Shown: piece after piece, positions 30,625 to 49,137 of the stretch
How the letters are laid out: every line of letters starts with the position of its first letter
How positions within the stretch are numbered: the stretch's first letter is position 1
NCBI GenBank assembly: GCA_018664115.1
Contig: JABJOX010000055.1
Span: 1 to 54,842, forward strand
Direction of reading: 5' to 3'
Source: Candidatus Woesearchaeota archaeon
Lineage (GTDB): Archaea; Nanobdellota; Nanobdellia; Woesearchaeales; GW2011-AR9
Length of the DNA: 54,842 nt
Position numbers and translations under genes: made by a program
Notes under the pieces: model-generated
Told to the model about the DNA's origin: nothing
Databases searched by the model: none
Seen by the model: only the letters and a program-made list of their open reading frames with translations

Positions 30625-31920
30625 TTATTCTTCTACAATTATCAACGGACCAGTATATTCTGGAAGAACTATTGGTTCTATTTCTACTGCATTGGGTAAA
30701 TTCATTTTTTTAATATTATAATAAGTGCAAAATCCTGAGGTTTCTAAAGAACTCCCTATTTCAGCATTAAACTTTTCTGCCCCTAGTTTTGTGGTGAAAA
30801 ATTCGCTTTCACTTTGTCCTAAAGCAACAACGTCATGTGGATTATTAATTCCAAATAATTCAGGGCCAGTACAATCATCAGATTCATAATGAATATTTAA
30901 AGTGGACATTCCCGGCCAATCGCCACCAGTTACAACCTTACCATTAAAACGTAAATAATAAACTTTATCAATGTTCACATCATAAATTGTAACATAAGTA
31001 GAGTGACCCAGTCCAGACATTGGTTTCCATCCCAAAACATAACCAACCTCTTTACCTTCAGAATCATAAACTTTTAACGACGGACCAGTTGGTCCCATCT
31101 CGCCAGGAATTCCTTGTTCACCTTGTAAACCAGTATTTCCAGTATCCCCTTTTAGTCCGGCCAATCCAGTTAAACCTTGGATTCCTTGTTCTCCTTTTAG
31201 ACCAGGAAGTCCTTGTAAACCAGTTTCTCCCTGAATACCTTGTGGACCCATAATACCCATTAAACCTTCTAAACCCTGTTCGCCTTTCGGTCCAACTGGA
31301 CCTTGTAATCCGGCATCTCCTTTTGGACCTTGAATTCCCTGATAACCCTGTTCACCTTTCGGACCAGTCTCTCCAGCAATACCTTGAGGACCTACTTCCC
31401 CTTGCAAACCAGTATCACCTTTGTAACCCTGAATACCTTGTTCTCCTTTTTCACCAGGTATTCCTTGAGAACCAACATCACCTTTAAGTCCTTGAATTCC
31501 CTGAAATCCTTGTAATCCTGTATCCCCTTTAATCCCTTGCAAACCCATAAGTCCCATTGGACCTTGCGGACCAGTTAATCCAGTTTCTCCTTGCGAGCCA
31601 GTTTCTCCTTTTTCCCCAGGAACTCCTTGTAAACCAGTATCACCTTTGTATCCCTGAATTCCTTGTTCTCCTTCTGAACCAGGTGTTCCTTGAGGGCCAG
31701 TTTCTCCTTGCAAACCAGTATCTCCTTTAGAACCAGGTATTCCTTGTAAACCAATAGGACCTTGCTCACCAACTAAAGGTGTTTGATTTTCTAAATATTC
31801 AACACGTTGTTCTAACTGAGCAATTTTTTCATTATAATTAGTTGAAGGATTATTATCTAGATCACAAGAAGGTAATGCTGCACAAGCTGCAAATAATAAA
31901 GTAGTAAGTGTTTTTCTCAT
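30625..31920 (-). CDS. collagen-like exported (lipo)protein
   Basis: Signal peptide ending LPSC, coiled coil, about 77 uninterrupted Gly-X-Y triplets (about 31078-31770), globular C-terminal domain. Confidence 0.92.
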
Positions 31921-40172: not shown

Positions 40173-41153
40173 ATGGAACAAACTATTCTCAAAACATTAA
40201 AAAATAATTTACAATACCAAGAAGGAGAGAAAGTAGCAATTATTTATCAAGAATGGAATGATTCTTTCGATTCAGAGTTAAAACAATTCTTCATTAATTC
40301 TAAAGAAATCTCCAAAAAACTCTACAAAGTATTCAAAGAAAATAATATCAACACAAAACTTATCTCCTACATTCCATCAGAAGCTAGAAGTGGTGTTGAT
40401 GCTCCAAAAGAAATCTACGAACAAGCAAAAGATAAAGATATAATTTTCATGCCAACAGTATTTTCTTTAACCCATACAGATTTCACAAAAACTCAATTTC
40501 AAAGAGGAGCAAGACTTGCTAGTATGCCCAAATTTACTTTGCAATGGTTTGAAAAGTCTGGGCCAATGGACGTTGATCAAGATAAAATAATTGCTCTTAG
40601 TAAAGAATATAGCGATAAAATGAAAAATTCTTCTCAAGTGATAATCAAAGCACCAGAAACAGAAATTACAATTGAAATAAATCAAAATCTCGTACACGAA
40701 AGTACAGGAATTATTCCAAAAGGAGATTGTGGTAACCTTCCGGGAGCAGAAGTTTTCTGTGTTCCCAAAAATGCAAATGGATTTTTTACAATCTTCAAAG
40801 GTTGGGGCGGACCTTTTTCTTTAGAACATGATGTTAAATTCATCGTCAAAGATTGTAAAATCACAAACTTAGTTGGAAAAACAGAAGAAGCTAACAAATA
40901 TATTGAAGAAAAAGTCAAACCATTAATCTTCAAAGAAAAAAATTTCAATGTTCTAGCAGAATTTGGTATCGGCACAAATCCAAACGTAACTAAAGAATCT
41001 TTACAAAAATACGGTTGGTCTGGATTGTTAGCAGAGAAAATATTCGGAACAGTTCATTTCGCTAATGGCAATAGCGCAGGAATGGGCGGCGATAACAATG
41101 TTCCCGTGCATCTCGATTGGGTCATTGAGAATGCAGAACTAGAATGGAAGTAA
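40173..41153 (+). CDS. M29-family (aminopeptidase T-like) metallopeptidase
   Basis: GNLPGAEVF, AEFGIGTN, EKIFGTVHFANG and HLDWV. Confidence 0.85.
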   Translation: MEQTILKTLKNNLQYQEGEKVAIIYQEWNDSFDSELKQFFINSKEISKKLYKVFKENNINTKLISYIPSEARSGVDAPKEIYEQAKDKDIIFMPTVFSLTHTDFTKTQFQRGARLASMPKFTLQWFEKSGPMDVDQDKIIALSKEYSDKMKNSSQVIIKAPETEITIEINQNLVHESTGIIPKGDCGNLPGAEVFCVPKNANGFFTIFKGWGGPFSLEHDVKFIVKDCKITNLVGKTEEANKYIEEKVKPLIFKEKNFNVLAEFGIGTNPNVTKESLQKYGWSGLLAEKIFGTVHFANGNSAGMGGDNNVPVHLDWVIENAELEWK

Positions 41154-41204
41154 ACAATTTCAAACCCCTAATTTTATATATGTGTATTATTTAATAATAA
41201 AATC

Positions 41205-42413
41205 ATGGATGTTAAAGAAAAAGAGGTCATGAACAAAAACATCTGGAAATTTGGTTTATACAATTTTATAGATCACATTAGAATGATCTGGATGATTAAA
41301 ACTCTGTTTCTTTTATGGTTGGGATTTAATTTTACCAACATGAGTATCCATGAATCTATTTTGGCTTTAGTAATATTTTTGTTTGAAGTGCCATTAGGAG
41401 CTTTAGCAGATTTTATTGGTAAAAGAAAAGCAATCATTATTTCCGCAGGGTTGCATGGTGTTGGATTTATGTTAATGGGAATAATGAATGTTCCTGTTCA
41501 CTATTACTTTATTGCTATAATTATGGGTCTAGCATTTTCTTTCTTTTCTGGTTCTGATGTAGCATTACTTTATGATTCATTAAAAAAAGTAAACCGAGAA
41601 AAAGAATATAAAAAAATAAGAGGAAAAATTAATGCAATTGGACAGGTTGGTTCAATAATTGGTGTTTTTGTTGGACCTGCTCTTTATTTAGTAAATCCAA
41701 GATTAGGTTTTCTTTTAACAGGAGCAATATATCTGTTAGGAGCGATTGTTTTACTGACTATGAAAGAACCATATCAATTTCATCATAAATTTACACTTAA
41801 GAAACATTGGCAACAAACAATAGAAAGTTTAAAATTTTCTTTCAAACATGTTCAGGTAAGATGGATTATATTTTACTTTTTTGTAGGACATATTATCTAT
41901 GAATTAGTTTTTGCATTTTTTCAACAACCAATATTAACAAACGTAGGCGTTACGGTTGAATTTTTTGGAATATTATTTGCAGTAATGATGGGAATAAGAG
42001 CCATAGGTGCTTATTTTGCAGATCATATTGAAAAATTATTAAAAGAAAATTTAACTTTATTATTAGTTTTGTTAAGTCAAGTTGCTATTTTTTGGTTTTT
42101 AGCCAGTGGAAATTTATTTGTTGTAGTTCCTTTCATTGGTTTGTTGTACTTCATATATGGTTTTGAAGATGTTATTTTAGAAGATTACATTAATGCACAC
42201 ATTTCATCAAATAAAAGAGCGACAGTCCTTTCCGTTCAAAGCATGTTTCATAATGCAATGATGATTATCATTTTTATTGTTGTAGGTAAAGCGATTGATT
42301 TGTTTTCAATGGGAACAACCTTAAGATATATTTCAATAACATTGCTATTGTTTACTTTGATTCTATTTACATTCAAGAGAGGACTTACAGTAAATGGTAA
42401 GTTTCAAAATTAA
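41205..42413 (+). CDS. MFS transporter
   Basis: FEVPLGALADFIGKR motif A, SG...ALLYDSL and RATVLS; about 12 TM. Confidence 0.9.
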   Translation: MDVKEKEVMNKNIWKFGLYNFIDHIRMIWMIKTLFLLWLGFNFTNMSIHESILALVIFLFEVPLGALADFIGKRKAIIISAGLHGVGFMLMGIMNVPVHYYFIAIIMGLAFSFFSGSDVALLYDSLKKVNREKEYKKIRGKINAIGQVGSIIGVFVGPALYLVNPRLGFLLTGAIYLLGAIVLLTMKEPYQFHHKFTLKKHWQQTIESLKFSFKHVQVRWIIFYFFVGHIIYELVFAFFQQPILTNVGVTVEFFGILFAVMMGIRAIGAYFADHIEKLLKENLTLLLVLLSQVAIFWFLASGNLFVVVPFIGLLYFIYGFEDVILEDYINAHISSNKRATVLSVQSMFHNAMMIIIFIVVGKAIDLFSMGTTLRYISITLLLFTLILFTFKRGLTVNGKFQN

Positions 42414-42416
42414 TTT

Positions 42417-43766
42417 CTATACCAATTCTTTCTTCAACCAATCTTTTCTCCAGTAGAAATAATATGCAATTCCTGCAGAGATCACATTAGAAATCGGATA
42501 AGCAACCCAAATCCCTAATTGTTGCATCCCAACAATTGATGATAAAACATAACTAATCACAAATACCATAATTGTATTAAACAAAGCTAGAAACATTGCA
42601 GTTGTAGTTTTTCCAGCTGCTTTTAATGTTCCAAAGATTACCATTTGCATTCCAATAAAACCAAACGTTAATGCCATTATTCTAATAAAGAAAGCAGCTT
42701 CTAAAACCAATTCAATTTCATTCGGAACAAAGAAAGCCGAAATTGGTTTAGCAAAAATAAATAGTAAAACTCCTAATCCAGTTAAAGTTAAGAAACCAAT
42801 TTTCATTCCCGTTTTAACAATCTTCTCTGCTCGTTCATGCTGTCTTGCACCTAAATTATTACCAACAATTACTGAAGTAGCAATGGAAAAACCAATTCCA
42901 GGAATAATCACAAACATAAATATTCTCATTCCAATTCCAAAAGAAGCAATGGTTAAAGTTCCAAATAACGAAGCAACAAAAGTCATTAAAATCATTCCAA
43001 AAGAACGAGAACCCATTTCTAAAGATGACGGTAATCCTAATCTAAAAATTTTCTTCACCCAAGAAAACTTCATTTTTAAATCAGACCATCTTAATTTAAT
43101 CCCATAAGTTCCCCTAACCAATAGAATAATTCCAATAATTGCAGATAAGTATTCTGTGATTAATGTTGCAAGTGCAACTCCTGAAACTCCCATAGCGGGA
43201 ATGAATCTCCAACCAAACATTAATACTGGATCTAAAAAGAAATTCAACACAACCGTAATAGAAATAATGATTAACGGCACTTTAACTTCTCCAACCCCCC
43301 GTAATGATGATTGAAATAAAATGTAAACAAACATTGCTGTGATTGCTAAGAACGATATTTGTAGATAAGAAGTAGCTTGTTGTAAAACGGATAAATCTTT
43401 AGTGAGAAACGATAATAAATAATGTGAAGAAAAATATCCAACAACAGAAATAATTACTGCCATAATAGAAACTAAACTTAAACTTTGCCCAACAGTGGAT
43501 GAAACTTTATCAGGTTCACCTTTTCCATTATATTGAGCTACAAGAATAGATGAAGCCATTAATAAACCCATTGCTAAAGACATTAAAAAAAATAATATTG
43601 GAAAACTTAACGATACAGCCGCTACTGCTTCTACTCCTAACCGACCAACCCAGAATGTATCAATTAATTGATAAACTGTTTGCAAAATGTTGGCAAAGAT
43701 TATCGGCACTGCAATTATCAATAACGATTTTGTAATTGAACCGTTAAGTAATTTTTCTCTATTCAT
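42417..43766 (-). CDS. MATE family efflux transporter
   Basis: DTFWVGRLG..AVAAV, NFFLDP.L.FG and MGVSGVALAT. Confidence 0.92.
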   Translation of the reverse strand: MNREKLLNGSITKSLLIIAVPIIFANILQTVYQLIDTFWVGRLGVEAVAAVSLSFPILFFLMSLAMGLLMASSILVAQYNGKGEPDKVSSTVGQSLSLVSIMAVIISVVGYFSSHYLLSFLTKDLSVLQQATSYLQISFLAITAMFVYILFQSSLRGVGEVKVPLIIISITVVLNFFLDPVLMFGWRFIPAMGVSGVALATLITEYLSAIIGIILLVRGTYGIKLRWSDLKMKFSWVKKIFRLGLPSSLEMGSRSFGMILMTFVASLFGTLTIASFGIGMRIFMFVIIPGIGFSIATSVIVGNNLGARQHERAEKIVKTGMKIGFLTLTGLGVLLFIFAKPISAFFVPNEIELVLEAAFFIRIMALTFGFIGMQMVIFGTLKAAGKTTTAMFLALFNTIMVFVISYVLSSIVGMQQLGIWVAYPISNVISAGIAYYFYWRKDWLKKELV

Positions 43767-43859
43767 AATTAAGATGGTTTTAGAATTAGTTTATAAAATT
43801 AATTGTTAACTTTTTAATTACCGAAATAAATATAAACCACCCCGAAAAATAATAAAACA

Positions 43860-44126
43860 ATGGAAGCTAGATTAAGAAATGACGCTCATGAACTTATAAA
43901 GAAGAATCTAGATTTAGCAGATATGGTCAGTAAAGTTTATTACAAAAAGTTACCAAATTATATTCCTTTTAGTGATGTAAGAGATGCTGCGTATTTGGGA
44001 TTAGTAGAGGCTGCTAATAAATATAAAAATATTGGGATTGGCTTTGGTGCATTTGCAAGACCAAGAATATTTGGAGCCATTACTGATTATTTAAGAAAAG
44101 AAGATAACCTTTTTAGATCAGCATGA
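43860..44126 (+). CDS. FliA/WhiG-type sigma factor, region 2 fragment
   Basis: DV..AAYLGLVEAA.KY, F..FARPRIFGAITDYLRKED. Confidence 0.8.
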   Translation: MEARLRNDAHELIKKNLDLADMVSKVYYKKLPNYIPFSDVRDAAYLGLVEAANKYKNIGIGFGAFARPRIFGAITDYLRKEDNLFRSA

Positions 44127-44572
44127 AAAATGAAGTATTTAAAGCTAAAAGAAAATTAGAAAAAGAAAAAAAAGAAGTAAATAAAGAAAATCTTGCCAGA
44201 AAAATGGGTTTATCTTTAGATGAATATCTTGAACTAGAACAAGATTGGTCAATCAGCGTTAAAAATATAAATGAAGCTTTTACTGGTTATGATGGAAGCA
44301 AGACTTTTGCTGAAGTTTATAGTAATCATTCTCCAACTCCTGAAGATGAAACTTTATTAATGGAAGATAAAAGAATTTTATACCAAGCACTAAAAACAAT
44401 AAAAAATGAGAAAAAAAGAAAAGCAGTTGAATTATATTTCTTAGAAGGGGAAAATCAAGAAGTGATTGGAGAAATTTTAGGAGTCACTGCTAGTAGAATT
44501 TGTCAAATCCACACAGAAATATTACCACAATTGAAAGAAACAATTATTGAAATAAGAAGTGAAGGGATATAA
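44123..44572 (+). CDS. FliA/WhiG-type sigma factor, region 3-4 fragment
   Basis: LARKMGLSLDEY, PTPED, LYF.EG.NQEVIGEILGVTASRICQIH. Confidence 0.8.
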   Translation: MKNEVFKAKRKLEKEKKEVNKENLARKMGLSLDEYLELEQDWSISVKNINEAFTGYDGSKTFAEVYSNHSPTPEDETLLMEDKRILYQALKTIKNEKKRKAVELYFLEGENQEVIGEILGVTASRICQIHTEILPQLKETIIEIRSEGI

Positions 44573-44578
44573 AAAAAC

Positions 44579-46921
44579 CTACCCTTCCACAACCCAAACT
44601 TTAACAGTAAACGGTTGTTCTTCAACTGAATCGTCAACAACAACAGCTTCTTCAACAACTTCTGAATAAACATTCACAACCCATTCTTTGGTTACAGAAT
44701 CTCTACCATCTGAAACAACAACTTTAACTTTCTTCTTTCCAGGTGATGTAAATGTTCTTGTGATTGTATCAGTCCCAATAACTTTTTGCTGTCTTAAACC
44801 AAGATTCCATTCATACGACAATTTATCGTTATCTAAATCTTTAACCGCAACATGGAATACTGTTTTCACTCCAGTCTCAACTGTGATTACTTCTTCAGGT
44901 AAGAAATCTAATACTTCAGGCTTCTGATTAACATTCTTCACAATAACCTCAACAGGATGAACAACTTCTAAAGAACCATCAGAAGCAACAAAACTCAAAA
45001 ATACAGTTTCTTGTTCCTTGTTGAACTTTCTATTCCAAGAAGAATATTTACTAACAAGATTATTCAAAAATCCACCCGTCTTTTCAGCAACAGTACTATG
45101 AGCTGGTGCCCAAGTAAATTGGCCATCATTAAATGATGCGCCGAAAGGAATGTTATCTAACCTAATTTTAAGTTCATCATTGTCAGGATCAGTTGCTGAA
45201 ACCCAGAAACTAAATTCTTCTCCCTCATTAACAATGTGTTTATCTTTTTTGATTTTTAAAGTAGGTTCACGATTATTTTTCTTAACTGTTAAATAAACAG
45301 TTTCAGTATTACTCAATTTACCATCAGTAGCAGTAAGTGTAACCGGATAAATGTCTTGATCATCATAATCAGTACTCCATTTACCTGACCTTTTATTTAA
45401 TGGCCAACCATAATAAATTTTAACTTTATCACCATCAGGATCAACTGCTTCAGCATTAAAATCAACAGAATCTAATTCAGTAATTGTTAAATTTTCAAAA
45501 CTTGTAAATTGTGGCATTCTGTTAACATTGTAAACAATTAATTTAACTTCGTTAGAAGTACATAATTCTTTTCCACAAGCGGTTATTGTAAATGGCACAG
45601 TTTTTTTCTTCAAAAAATAATGTTCTAACTTTAACGAACTAAGTAAATTACTAACAAAATTACCTTTCCTTTTAATGTAATCATAACCTGGTGTCCAAGA
45701 GAAAACATTATCTTTTTGATCAAATTCAAAAACTTCTGGGAAGCCAGCAAAACTAACTTCAACTTTATCATTATCAGGATCAGAAACATCAATTTCCCAT
45801 AATAATTCTTCATTTTCATTAACATAAATTTTTTCAGGAACATTTAATACTGGCGCTAAATCAACATCTAAAACAATTATTTCAACTTCTTTTTCAACAC
45901 TAAATTCACCATCAGAAGCAACTAATTCCAAATTATACTTCCCTGCATCATTAAAATTAGTTTGCCATTCACCTTCCTTATCAAGTGGAGTTTCAAACGA
46001 ATAAGATAACACGTCACCATCTAAATCAACGTCTGGTAAATCTAAATAAACTAATTCGCCTTCTTTAACAGTTACTGATAAAACATCCAAAACCGGTTTT
46101 CTGTTAACATTTTCAATATTAATAGTCCATTCTTTTTCTGAACTTAAAGTGCCATCAGTTACAACTAATTCTAACAAATGTTCACCTGCAGAATTATAAT
46201 CTAGATAATATTCGCCGGAATTTTCTTCTCCAACAATTTCGCCATCAAATTTCCAGACAAAAGATAATTCTTCTTTATCACCATCAACAGCTTCAACATA
46301 AAATTCTAAATCCTCATCTTCTTCAAAATTAACAATTTTACCTTCTGAAAAAGTATTAATTATTTCTGGTGCTTGGTTTGTATTTGATACAGACACATCA
46401 ACTCTAAATTTTTCATTAAACTCACCATCACTTGCTTCAAATACAGTTACAAAGTTTCCTTCATTATCATAATCAGGTGTCCACTTACCATTGTTATCAA
46501 ATGGCGCATTAAAATTAAAACTGATTGGATCATCATCAGGGTCAGTAACAAGTTTCTTTAAATCAATAGTTTGAGTTTCTTTGATAGAAATTTTATTCTC
46601 TGATAAAATAGGAGGTTGATTTTTATTATCTACAATTACTTTAACTTCTTGTTTAACTTGGTTAACACCATCAGAAGCAGTGATCTCTAAATCATGTTCA
46701 CCAGCATCATCATAATCTGTTTGCCATTCACCTTTATCATCTAACGGCGGAGAATAATAATAAACAATCTTATCATTATCTAAATCAGTTGCTTCAGCTT
46801 TAACTTTAACTAAATCAGTTTCTTGAACATGAAAAGTTTTTACAGCTGCAAAAGAAGTATTAACTAACAAAAATAGAGTCATCAGTCCAATCAGAACTAA
46901 AATTGTTTTTTTATTGTTCAT
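44579..46921 (-). CDS. exported protein with tandem Ig-like/PKD/cadherin-like repeats
   Basis: Signal peptide; repeated D.D.D, GEWQT.YDDAG.Y..(A/V)SDG and N..P motifs. Confidence 0.85.
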   Translation of the reverse strand: MNNKKTILVLIGLMTLFLLVNTSFAAVKTFHVQETDLVKVKAEATDLDNDKIVYYYSPPLDDKGEWQTDYDDAGEHDLEITASDGVNQVKQEVKVIVDNKNQPPILSENKISIKETQTIDLKKLVTDPDDDPISFNFNAPFDNNGKWTPDYDNEGNFVTVFEASDGEFNEKFRVDVSVSNTNQAPEIINTFSEGKIVNFEEDEDLEFYVEAVDGDKEELSFVWKFDGEIVGEENSGEYYLDYNSAGEHLLELVVTDGTLSSEKEWTINIENVNRKPVLDVLSVTVKEGELVYLDLPDVDLDGDVLSYSFETPLDKEGEWQTNFNDAGKYNLELVASDGEFSVEKEVEIIVLDVDLAPVLNVPEKIYVNENEELLWEIDVSDPDNDKVEVSFAGFPEVFEFDQKDNVFSWTPGYDYIKRKGNFVSNLLSSLKLEHYFLKKKTVPFTITACGKELCTSNEVKLIVYNVNRMPQFTSFENLTITELDSVDFNAEAVDPDGDKVKIYYGWPLNKRSGKWSTDYDDQDIYPVTLTATDGKLSNTETVYLTVKKNNREPTLKIKKDKHIVNEGEEFSFWVSATDPDNDELKIRLDNIPFGASFNDGQFTWAPAHSTVAEKTGGFLNNLVSKYSSWNRKFNKEQETVFLSFVASDGSLEVVHPVEVIVKNVNQKPEVLDFLPEEVITVETGVKTVFHVAVKDLDNDKLSYEWNLGLRQQKVIGTDTITRTFTSPGKKKVKVVVSDGRDSVTKEWVVNVYSEVVEEAVVVDDSVEEQPFTVKVWVVEG

Positions 46922-46960
46922 TTTATTCCTACCATTCAAATAAAAAAAGATAAAAAAAAA

Positions 46961-47986
46961 TTAATTTAAATCCAAAGAGATGTCAGTAATCACTGGCGGC
47001 ATGTTTATGTCTTCAACAGTTACAGTAACTTTCTTAGTAACTTTGTCTTTACCATCATCAGCAACAACAGTAACTACATAAACTCCATGATCAGTAAAAC
47101 CAGTTTCCCAGACTCCATCATTTCCTAATGGTTCAGAGATAGTTAAAGTGATTTTATCTTCATCTAAATCTGTGATTAATGGTTTTAATTCAACAACTTC
47201 TCCTTCTTTAATAGTAACGTCTTCTAATCCAGATACTACAGGTAATTCATTAACATCATTAATAGTTAATAAAAAGGTTTTATCAGTATCTAATTCACCA
47301 TCACTAGCAACAACTTTGATATCATACTCTCCAGCAGAAGTGTGGTCAGTTACAAAAGTTCCAGACTTTAATGGTTCTGAAATTGATACTGAAACAGCAT
47401 CTCCGTTTGGATCAGCAACTTTTGGTTCAAAGTTAATTTGTTCACCCTCACTTACAGTAATATCTTTAACTCCAGTAATAGTTGGTGGAACATTAACTCT
47501 CTCCACAATGATCTTAACTTTCTTTTCTGTAGTTAGTTTTCCATCAGTTGCAGTTAAAGTAACTACATACTCACCAGCATCCCCATAATTAGTTTGCCAC
47601 TCACCTTGTTTGTTTAATGGTTTAGTGAAAGCATAAGTAACAACATCTTTGTCAGGATCACTAACTTGAACATTTAACTTTACTAATTCGTTTTCTTTAA
47701 CATTAATAACTTCTAAATCTGATTCATAAACATCAACTTCTTCAACATCTTCAGTTAAGTCTGGAAGAACAATATCTTCTTCAACTTCTTCAAGAAGTAA
47801 ATCTTCTTCAGCTAATTCTTCTTCGAGATTTAATTGCTCTTCAATATTAGCAATCTCATCAATAAGACTTAAATCTTCTTCTGTAACATCATCTGCTGGA
47901 ACATCATAAGCTTTATAATCTAAACATCCTACTAAAAACACAAACATAACTAAAACTGTTAAACTCACCATAACTTTTTTTATCAT
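46961..47986 (-). CDS. lipoprotein with three Ig-like repeats (same family as neighbour)
   Basis: LVGC lipobox-like motif, acidic linker, DPD.D...GEWQTNYGDAGEY..ATDG repeats. Confidence 0.85.
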   Translation of the reverse strand: MIKKVMVSLTVLVMFVFLVGCLDYKAYDVPADDVTEEDLSLIDEIANIEEQLNLEEELAEEDLLLEEVEEDIVLPDLTEDVEEVDVYESDLEVINVKENELVKLNVQVSDPDKDVVTYAFTKPLNKQGEWQTNYGDAGEYVVTLTATDGKLTTEKKVKIIVERVNVPPTITGVKDITVSEGEQINFEPKVADPNGDAVSVSISEPLKSGTFVTDHTSAGEYDIKVVASDGELDTDKTFLLTINDVNELPVVSGLEDVTIKEGEVVELKPLITDLDEDKITLTISEPLGNDGVWETGFTDHGVYVVTVVADDGKDKVTKKVTVTVEDINMPPVITDISLDLN

Positions 47987-48134
47987 TTTAAACTTCCCCC
48001 TCTTAAGACTGCAACAAACATGAGCCTCTTTTGATTAATTGAGTATTCTAGAATGATAACTCGTATTTAAAGATTTATACACAGGAAAGTATATTGTGCA
48101 GGAATAGTTTTAATTGTTAAGAATGAATAAAGAT

Positions 48135-49100
48135 TTAAAATTTCTTTGCAACATTACTAATTCTAACTTCATCAATAGCACCAATAAAACAATGTGCTGG
48201 TATTTGAGTGTACGGTTCTGAACCAATTCCCAAACCCATATTCTCAGTTTTAGTTATCGGTCCCGCTATTTCAAAAGAATCTAAACATTCACCATTAATA
48301 AATAATTTTGCAATTCCTTGTTCATAACTTAACCTTAAATGAGTAAATTTATCTGCTGGAAATAAATAATCAGCTTCCAATAAAACTTTATTTTGAGCAA
48401 TTCCTAAAACACCTACTAATTTAGAAGGTTTTTTTATGAAAAGACCATATCCTTTACATTCTCCATATTCTCCTAAAGGACAAGCAGCTTTATTAATTAT
48501 CCAACCCCGATCACCTTTAAAACTGGATTCTGTTGATTTAGGTTTAATTAATACATCAATGGTAATTTCATCTGGGTTAAGTTCCGGAAAATCAGACAAC
48601 ACAATTGCGGCATTACCATCAAAATATCTTGCATCACCTAAACCATTCTCAGAATTAACTTTTGTAGTCAAACCATATTCTACGGCTTCCTTTTCTGTAC
48701 AATCAGGTTTTAAATAATTTGGAGGTTCAAAATGAAATAAAGCAACACAATTTTCATCGGGTTCATAAGGTTCTAAAATTGATTGAGATATTTCATCAAC
48801 CATGTTTGAATCTTTAATTTCAATCAATTCCTCTAATTCTAAATCAAAAATATTCTTTTGATCTAAAAGTTCATTTTGACCAAATACATCATTAGGAATT
48901 ACTTCATTAAAAGAATCAATTAAATCTTTACCATAATAACTTTCACCATCTAAATTTACAACAGAATCTTTACTTAATGATTCTTCAATTCTAACATCAT
49001 TTGTTAAATCAACATTTGGAACCCAAGGGGCAGGTTTATTTACACATGCAGAAAAATAAGCCAAACTTCCGATTAATAATAATTTATTGTACCAGCGCAT
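48135..49100 (-). CDS. lipoprotein with LamG/concanavalin A-like domain
   Basis: FSAC lipobox-like motif, VALFHF, FDG, LFING and FIGAIDEVRISN. Confidence 0.8.
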   Translation of the reverse strand: MRWYNKLLLIGSLAYFSACVNKPAPWVPNVDLTNDVRIEESLSKDSVVNLDGESYYGKDLIDSFNEVIPNDVFGQNELLDQKNIFDLELEELIEIKDSNMVDEISQSILEPYEPDENCVALFHFEPPNYLKPDCTEKEAVEYGLTTKVNSENGLGDARYFDGNAAIVLSDFPELNPDEITIDVLIKPKSTESSFKGDRGWIINKAACPLGEYGECKGYGLFIKKPSKLVGVLGIAQNKVLLEADYLFPADKFTHLRLSYEQGIAKLFINGECLDSFEIAGPITKTENMGLGIGSEPYTQIPAHCFIGAIDEVRISNVAKKF

Positions 49101-49137
49101 AATATTCACTTCCCATTTATCACCAGAATAATAAAAG

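Follow-up and report, generated by a model that had tools for sequence, protein, structure and literature searches.

A FliA/WhiG-like sigma factor gene split at the region 2/3 boundary in a woesearchaeotal genome

Architecture of the split gene

We found that the window, by which we mean the whole stretch of 54,842 nucleotides that was analysed, carries two overlapping open reading frames, ORF1 and ORF2, which together cover the regions of one sigma factor (Table 1). An earlier note on this DNA had described a FliA/WhiG-type sigma gene in an archaeal genome, divided into a region 2 piece of 88 aa and a region 3-4 piece of 149 aa by an ATGA overlap, and this description is borne out by the ORF layout, by the profile matches and by the archaeal host. 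Upon comparison with Pfam, ORF1 matched Sigma70_r2 (PF04542; E 1.8e-7, 31.3 bits, above the cut-off of 24) and ORF2 matched Sigma70_r4 (PF04545; E 6.9e-10, 38.7 bits, above the cut-off of 24.1), with a weak match of ORF2 to Sigma70_r3 (PF04539) at 20.2 bits, below the cut-off of 25.3. The top NCBIfam model for both ORFs was FliA_WhiG (TIGR02479), which aligns through the region 3 unit of ORF2. Since ORF1 covers positions 2-77 of this model and ORF2 positions 84-222, the break removes hardly any of the model; the scores, 44.2 bits for ORF1 and 63.5 bits for ORF2, are far below the curated cut-off of 189.6 bits. The break falls on the sigma-2/sigma-3 boundary, and ORF1 ends at the conserved 'RS' of the region 2.4/3.0 junction.

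Table 1. Coordinates of the split sigma gene and its surroundings in the window, and of three further interrupted sigma genes in the same family
Feature	Position	Strand	Description	Basis or remark
Accessory insert, 3.4 kb	41148..44579	.	MFS transporter, MATE transporter, split sigma	
BRE/TATA-like promoter stretch	43823..43837	+	-37 to -23 from the ORF1 ATG	fits a leaderless mRNA
ORF1	43860..44126	+	88 aa, sigma region 2 (sigma-2 domain)	Pfam Sigma70_r2, TIGR02479
TAG closing the ORF2 frame 5' of the ORF2 ATG	44114..44116	+		three-frame translation
ATGA stop/start overlap of ORF1 and ORF2	44123..44126	+	7-nt length difference (after 44122/44123) and T/A polymorphism at 44124	
ORF2	44123..44572	+	149 aa, sigma regions 3-4	Pfam Sigma70_r4, TIGR02479, AlphaFold2
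Eight-A run in the A-rich part of ORF2	44166..44173	+		public contigs tend to break here
L053	G082:C13 1034-2391		RpoD-like sigma, frameshifted just after region 2.4	37-nt overlap
L054	G065:C1 977-2486		RpoD-like sigma, frameshifted just after region 2.4	41-nt overlap
L055	G065:C1 605-1348		sigma gene cut by an in-frame TAG inside region 2	

The closest solved structures of both pieces belong to sigma-28/WhiG (9wsf, 6pmi, 1rp3, 6pfj), with FliA 9wsf/9wsm, 6pmi and 1rp3 being the closest solved relatives of ORF1. For ORF2, an AlphaFold2 model based on an alignment of 30 sequences reaches a mean pLDDT of 86.7 and comprises a confident three-helix unit in region 3 (residues 2-43), a low-confidence flexible linker (residues about 44-70) and the four helices of the region 4 helix-turn-helix (residues 73-146, pLDDT above 90). 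Among the matches listed, those of this model in the PDB by Foldseek were bacterial sigma chains almost throughout. Furthermore, the window protein keeps 31 of the 45 family-conserved columns, compared with 23-36 in nine archaeal FliA-like relatives, where a column counts as conserved at 70% identity or more across 78 FliA-like library proteins; these 78 rows were chosen as ORF2 matches, so the C-terminal half is possibly flattered in the count.

The ORF1 stop occupies 44124-44126, and together with the TAG at 44114-44116 it confines the frame change to about 44117-44123, an interval that had been predicted from the sequence and that contains the actual site of a 7-nt indel described below. 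Two kinds of recoding were considered and rejected. Programmed -1 frameshifting was set aside upon finding by eye no slippery heptamer in 44117-44126, the sole T-run shifting into the TAG at 44114, and reading of the TGA as a sense codon was set aside on the ground that the ORF1 frame would still end at the TAG at 44157.

Upstream of the 810 ORF starts examined across the genome, we observe a signal that is A-rich, then T-rich, then A-rich at -37 to -23 from the ATG, a pattern that fits putative BRE/TATA promoters on leaderless mRNAs. We scored positions with a matrix built from these 810 starts and compared them with 20,000 random positions. The -38 to -22 stretch of ORF1 (43822-43838) scored 3.91 bits, which corresponds to the 81.5th percentile of gene starts and the 99.4th of random positions, in agreement with the archaeal BRE/TATA promoter that had been proposed there. 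Upstream of ORF2 the same matrix detects no promoter-like signal (1.2 bits, 48th percentile of genes), and no Shine-Dalgarno-like bases were seen by eye in the sequence preceding it. ATGA-type overlaps occur in 73 other ORF pairs of the genome. The composition is also host-like, as had been claimed; the GC content of the split gene is 0.29, against 0.319 +/- 0.031 for the genes of the genome, and only 11.8% of gene fragments of the same length are closer to the codon usage of the genome. Additionally, the codon usage of both pieces is far nearer to that of the genome in frame than out of frame.

Host genome and junction alleles in public data

The window is the entire 54.8-kb contig of a 1.12-Mb draft genome in 68 contigs, which is 86.6% complete with 1.2% contamination and in which each contig has 29-34% GC. 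On the contig itself we find genes for PAC2, an MCM P-loop protein, two TrmB regulators and an archaeal helicase domain. Elsewhere in the genome, TFB lies on contig C20 and RpoH on contig C34, and the single Rpb1-type large subunit is archaeal and adjoins rpoB; the genome is therefore archaeal. A bacterial alpha-CTD was not found in this 86.6% complete genome, and TBP (PF00352) likewise gave no match in it although TFB and RNA polymerase subunits are present, an absence that may be due to assembly incompleteness. The taxonomy of the contig, which the earlier note had wanted confirmed, thus comes out as archaeal from its own genes, from flanks that are syntenic with two congeners and from the TFB, RpoH and archaeal A' of the genome.

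The contig also carries a run of mobile-element and defence genes at 5727-30194, with an integrase, a BRO-N protein, a HerA/TrwB-like ATPase, RadC, DUF4268, helicases, a complete type I restriction-modification set, a MazE-like protein, a GIY-YIG protein, a CARF-HTH protein and an MCM-like P-loop protein. This is followed at 30625-31920 on the minus strand by a 431-aa protein with collagen triple-helix repeats (Pfam Collagen, E 2.9e-40), and then by an Excalibur-domain protein.

Turning to the split, 48 public contigs carry the exact ORF1 protein and 35 the exact ORF2 protein (NCBI, JGI, Logan and ENA), the longest being 94.6 kb, and the 1-kb stretch around the gene is present in 20 marine or seawater runs from 17 studies (2016-2019), of which 0 of 20 are RNA. 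Since several pipelines return the same split proteins and many studies contain the stretch, the split is real and no assembly error. The view that it is an artefact, whether an assembly or sequencing indel or a bacterial contig misbinned with the archaeal genome, could appeal to the draft state of the genome and to the position of the junction beside A-rich low-complexity sequence where contigs break; contig ends in the marine runs cluster at 44146-44190, around the A-run of ORF2 at 44166-44173. It is made extremely improbable by these recurrent identical proteins, and, as regards misbinning, by the archaeal genes of the contig, by the syntenic flanks and by a promoter and codon usage that match the genome.

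The junction is polymorphic in wild populations. Upon comparing four of the 20 runs over the 1 kb (X17-X20, picked for the lowest share of words), the only listed difference was at position 44124. Run X20 has a contig across the junction with zero differences from the window, and in runs X17 and X19 no contig bridges the junction. In run X18, a single 428-nt contig at a depth of 3.4 differs solely by T>A at 44124, which changes the ORF1 TGA to AGA and the ORF2 ATG to AAG, so that the ORF1 stop and the ORF2 start are both lost. The protein P0156, a 122-aa gene call, starts at Met28 of ORF2, which fits loss of the ATG at 44123 as in the T>A allele.

A third allele emerges from the proteins P0159 and P0161 (106 aa, each on one 1,143-bp ENA contig), which run from ORF1 straight into the first residues of ORF2 with two extra residues between the two sequences. 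These are known as protein records; a 39-base stretch of the window had no match among metagenome contigs, a collection from which near-identical records may be missing. The DNA of the longer allele was deduced by insertion modelling, in which all insertions of 1, 4 and 7 nt near the junction were generated by script and compared with the first 105 residues of the two proteins. Only 7-nt insertions at 44122/44123 reproduce them, with 48 synonymous solutions, and no insertion of 1 or 4 nt does so. Relative to an in-frame allele that is still in circulation, the window allele therefore lacks 7 nt. With the 7-nt insertion placed in the window sequence, the computed frame stays open through ORF2, and the end of both proteins at 106 aa may be a contig end or a second defect. 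A full-length fused protein is not on record among the ORF2 search results; of 33 candidates in the range of 81-261 aa, three matched, namely the cluster of ORF2 itself and two distant proteins. The earlier note's concern that reads might reveal an indel error at the junction is answered by the many public contigs with the same split and by the identical X20 contig. The split form it described is common, but it is accompanied by the T>A allele and by the 7-nt longer one.

Each pair of the three alleles (the ATGA form of the window, T>A and 7 nt longer) is one event apart, and the length difference is exactly one 7-nt unit, lying beside a near-copy of itself in a short A-rich repeat. Such an arrangement invites the reading of a reversible switch, in which one or two copies of the repeat unit would switch the gene, within the population, between a fused sigma and a form that is split or silent. 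The three junction alleles in otherwise near-identical DNA, the restriction of the listed differences to 44124 and the exact unit length are in its favour. We nevertheless hold a switch to be quite improbable, given that one versus two copies of a 7-nt unit are a poor substrate for slippage, that the return from one copy to two takes no simple slip, that the window allele is one base off the simple product of repeat loss, and that the other alleles are known from two protein records and one low-depth contig only.

Accessory setting, relatives and sigma genes of the lineage

We next consider the surroundings of the gene. The split sigma has a MATE transporter, an MFS transporter and PKD-domain surface proteins as neighbours. 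In congener G001 (contig C6), only 31 bp separate the end of the counterpart of window 40173-41153 from the homologue of the PKD gene that starts at 44579 in the window, and the whole 3.4 kb with MFS, MATE and the split sigma has no equivalent at the syntenic site. In congener G002 (C48), 1.1 kb of other DNA occupies this slot and encodes a 167-aa ORF and a HicA/HicB-like pair (L084, 3200-4600). Absent from one congener and replaced in the other, the block places the sigma gene in a strain-variable accessory slot, and the slot, lying between two convergent genes, looks like a hot spot for accessory genes. At 44579-49109 on the minus strand, convergent to the sigma gene, we observe three consecutive predicted surface proteins (PKD, cadherin-like, Big_9, LamG), whose homologues are conserved in both congeners. 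The MATE gene is missing from both congeners and is 83% identical in another genus, with matches at E <= 1e-20 in 11 of 112 family genomes; it was rejected as a linked partner, no sigma gene being adjacent to the MATE relatives. Beside seven archaeal FliA-like relatives there is neither a conserved neighbour nor an anti-sigma gene.

Relatives of the gene itself are distant. Upon searching 1.84 billion cluster representatives with ORF2, we obtained 778 matches at E <= 1e-3 and only 5 at E <= 1e-10, and, an identical 70-aa fragment aside, the best non-self match was 37% identical; no relative lies between 37% and 99% identity, and the variants within the protein clusters are known at protein level only, which precludes dN/dS. 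When partitioning 59 other genomes by family, ORF2 matches were found in seven, all of the same family (7 of 35), and in 0 of 24 from other families of the order. The best of these is an intact 240-aa FliA-like gene of congener G002 at 29% identity, whereas the N-terminus of RNA polymerase A' is 91% identical to G002 (87% to G001), so the two sigma genes are not simple orthologues. The homologues that the earlier note had hoped to find in related genomes thus exist as intact, distant FliA-like archaeal genes, but an equally split relative was not found among the relatives of ORF2.

In a tree of 52 rows the window protein sits on a branch of 1.84 with no supported sister. The tree was built from 34 library proteins of 220-340 aa, 14 proteins from the loci of relatives, three genes of contig C56 of the same genome and the window protein; its library rows came from P0003, P0004 and P0008-P0041 with P0012 left out, and all other matches were left out. 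The archaeal RpoD-like sigmas, including the three C56 genes, group apart from the window gene in a clade of their own, supported by 100% SH-aLRT. Assignment of a donor by phylogeny was abandoned for a protein on so long a branch without a supported sister, and a viral origin was rejected upon finding no relative among viral contigs.

Archaeal sigma factors were reportedly first described by Rinke et al. in 2013. Of 60 other genomes of the family, 43 have a Sigma70_r2 match, as do 57 of a sample of 150 others drawn from the whole phylum. The FliA_WhiG model finds matches at E <= 1e-5 in 81 of the 112 other genomes of the family, with 0 of 113 genomes of the archaeal family exceeding the cut-off of 189.6 bits. 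The controls of the profile search behaved as expected, the bacteria among them matching and the archaea among them not. The passages on these genes in Castelle et al. 2021 (PMC8204110) already report sigma-70 genes (fam00359) as prevalent in Woesearchaeota; the same passages state that mis-binning was ruled out and that no anti-sigma factors were found. Sigma-70 genes are accordingly a lineage-wide feature of these archaea that is not new here, and the window gene is a broken or two-piece copy of an already known archaeal sigma oddity.

Breakage recurs in the family, with three further interrupted sigma genes, one in G082:C13 and two in G065:C1 (Table 1). All three detectable splits, namely the window gene, L053 and L054, lie at the region 2/3 junction. 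In addition, G022:C39 has a single open frame of 1,552 aa with three separate Sigma70_r2 matches.

Interpretation of the split and comparison with known systems

We put the chance at about even that the split sigma is a recently frameshifted accessory gene, disabled as a single sigma unit and thus a putative young pseudogene. In the course of events that we propose, the starting point would have been a FliA/WhiG-like member of the sigma-70 family, resident but accessory in a marine archaeon with a small genome of the DPANN type. An archaeal BRE/TATA promoter belonging to the gene would drive its transcription, and the mRNA would probably be leaderless. A presumably recent 7-nt deletion at the short A-rich repeat would have cut it between region 2 and region 3. 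ORF1, with the sigma-2 domain, would still be translated from the 5' end, and the region 3-4 piece with its helix-turn-helix is perhaps still made through reinitiation at the ATGA overlap. The intact protein may have acted by DNA binding as a transcription regulator. We lean towards loss of function because the gene is accessory and has no close relative, because an allele that removes both stop and start is tolerated, and because sigma genes of the family break repeatedly. Evidence against loss is the coincidence of the break with a domain boundary at hardly any cost in model positions, the standing of the split allele as the commonest in public data, and the conserved residues and in-frame, host-like codon usage of both halves. 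Intact domains, conserved residues and a tidy overlap are what one would see in a very young pseudogene and in a working two-piece protein alike.

The alternative of a working two-piece sigma, in which ORF1 and ORF2 are expressed from one leaderless mRNA, ORF2 by termination-reinitiation at the ATGA, and the pieces cooperate, is in our judgement possible though clearly the less probable. It draws on the same domain-boundary break, on the 73 other ATGA-type overlaps in the genome, on residues conserved as well as in intact archaeal relatives and on the two confidently folded domains of the ORF2 model, and it is kept alive by how far the ATGA allele prevails in public contigs (48 for ORF1 and 35 for ORF2, while each of the two read-through proteins is on a single one) and by the precedent of SigO-RsoA, a two-subunit sigma described as existing naturally in Bacillus subtilis in the part of the source that treats it (PMC7826278). 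The alleles could also be ordered from the in-frame form through deletion of a repeat unit, giving the X18 form, to an A>T change that created stop and start together, an order that would resemble rescue of the C-terminal piece; however, a direct 7-nt deletion would yield the window allele in one step. Also against cooperation of the pieces are the lack of an equally split relative and of any above 37% identity, the ORF2 start with neither Shine-Dalgarno-like bases by eye nor a promoter-like signal of its own, the existence in X18 of an allele destroying both stop and start, and the untidy breaks of other family sigma genes near the same region. A further step, that a two-subunit archaeal sigma is in the making, with a deletion followed by a base change that restored ORF2 and with spread of this allele across a widespread marine population because the pieces cooperate, appears unlikely. 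Nothing supports a decoy aimed at a bacterial partner, an idea that had also been raised for this gene.

Upon comparison with bacterial FliA/WhiG (sigma-28, group 3), the window gene shares the best model and structures, the sigma-2/sigma-3/sigma-4 order and 31 of 45 conserved columns, whereas it differs in being in two pieces, in scoring under the cut-off and in residing in a host with only archaeal RNA polymerase. Among the locus neighbours of the split sigma we find no FlgM, RsiG or flagellar gene context, and the bacterial sigma-28 promoter consensus is not enriched in the genome (1 full match against 0.4 expected from Markov simulations). With the DPANN sigma-70 genes, as treated in the relevant passages of Castelle et al. 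2021, the window gene shares a bacterial-type sigma in a small archaeal genome with TFB and no anti-sigma nearby; it is distinguished by being FliA/WhiG-like rather than RpoD-like, by its long branch, by its strain-variable slot and by the split. SigO-RsoA is, in the part of PMC7826278 that describes it, an established and conserved design that works on bacterial RNA polymerase, whereas the split in the window is a population variant with an in-frame allele still circulating, and its two separate polypeptides are predicted from the sequence.

The locus bears on the role of bacterial-type sigma factors in archaea that have only archaeal RNA polymerase. FliA-like copies can be strain-level accessory genes, and breaks in the sigma genes of this lineage are frequent and recur near the region 2/3 junction. 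The natural series of in-frame, frameshifted and ATGA-coupled alleles can be used to ask whether the pieces are still needed, and a two-piece form that proved functional would give archaea a counterpart of the two-subunit sigma of bacteria.

Finally, the genome has other sigma genes of its own. On the minus strand of C56 (86-4498, L013) there are three tandem intact RpoD-like genes of 475-482 aa, and a near-identical partial fourth copy lies at a contig end (C53:3-602, L014). They share with the split gene the superfamily and the archaeal host, and differ in being intact, twice as long and in a separate clade. C56 also carries TrmB- and Lrp-like regulators and an IleRS gene, the latter about 9 kb from the sigma genes, and in two relatives a gene for a class I (IleRS-like) tRNA synthetase comes immediately downstream of sigma genes (L023 in G016:C48 and L057 in G112:C60).
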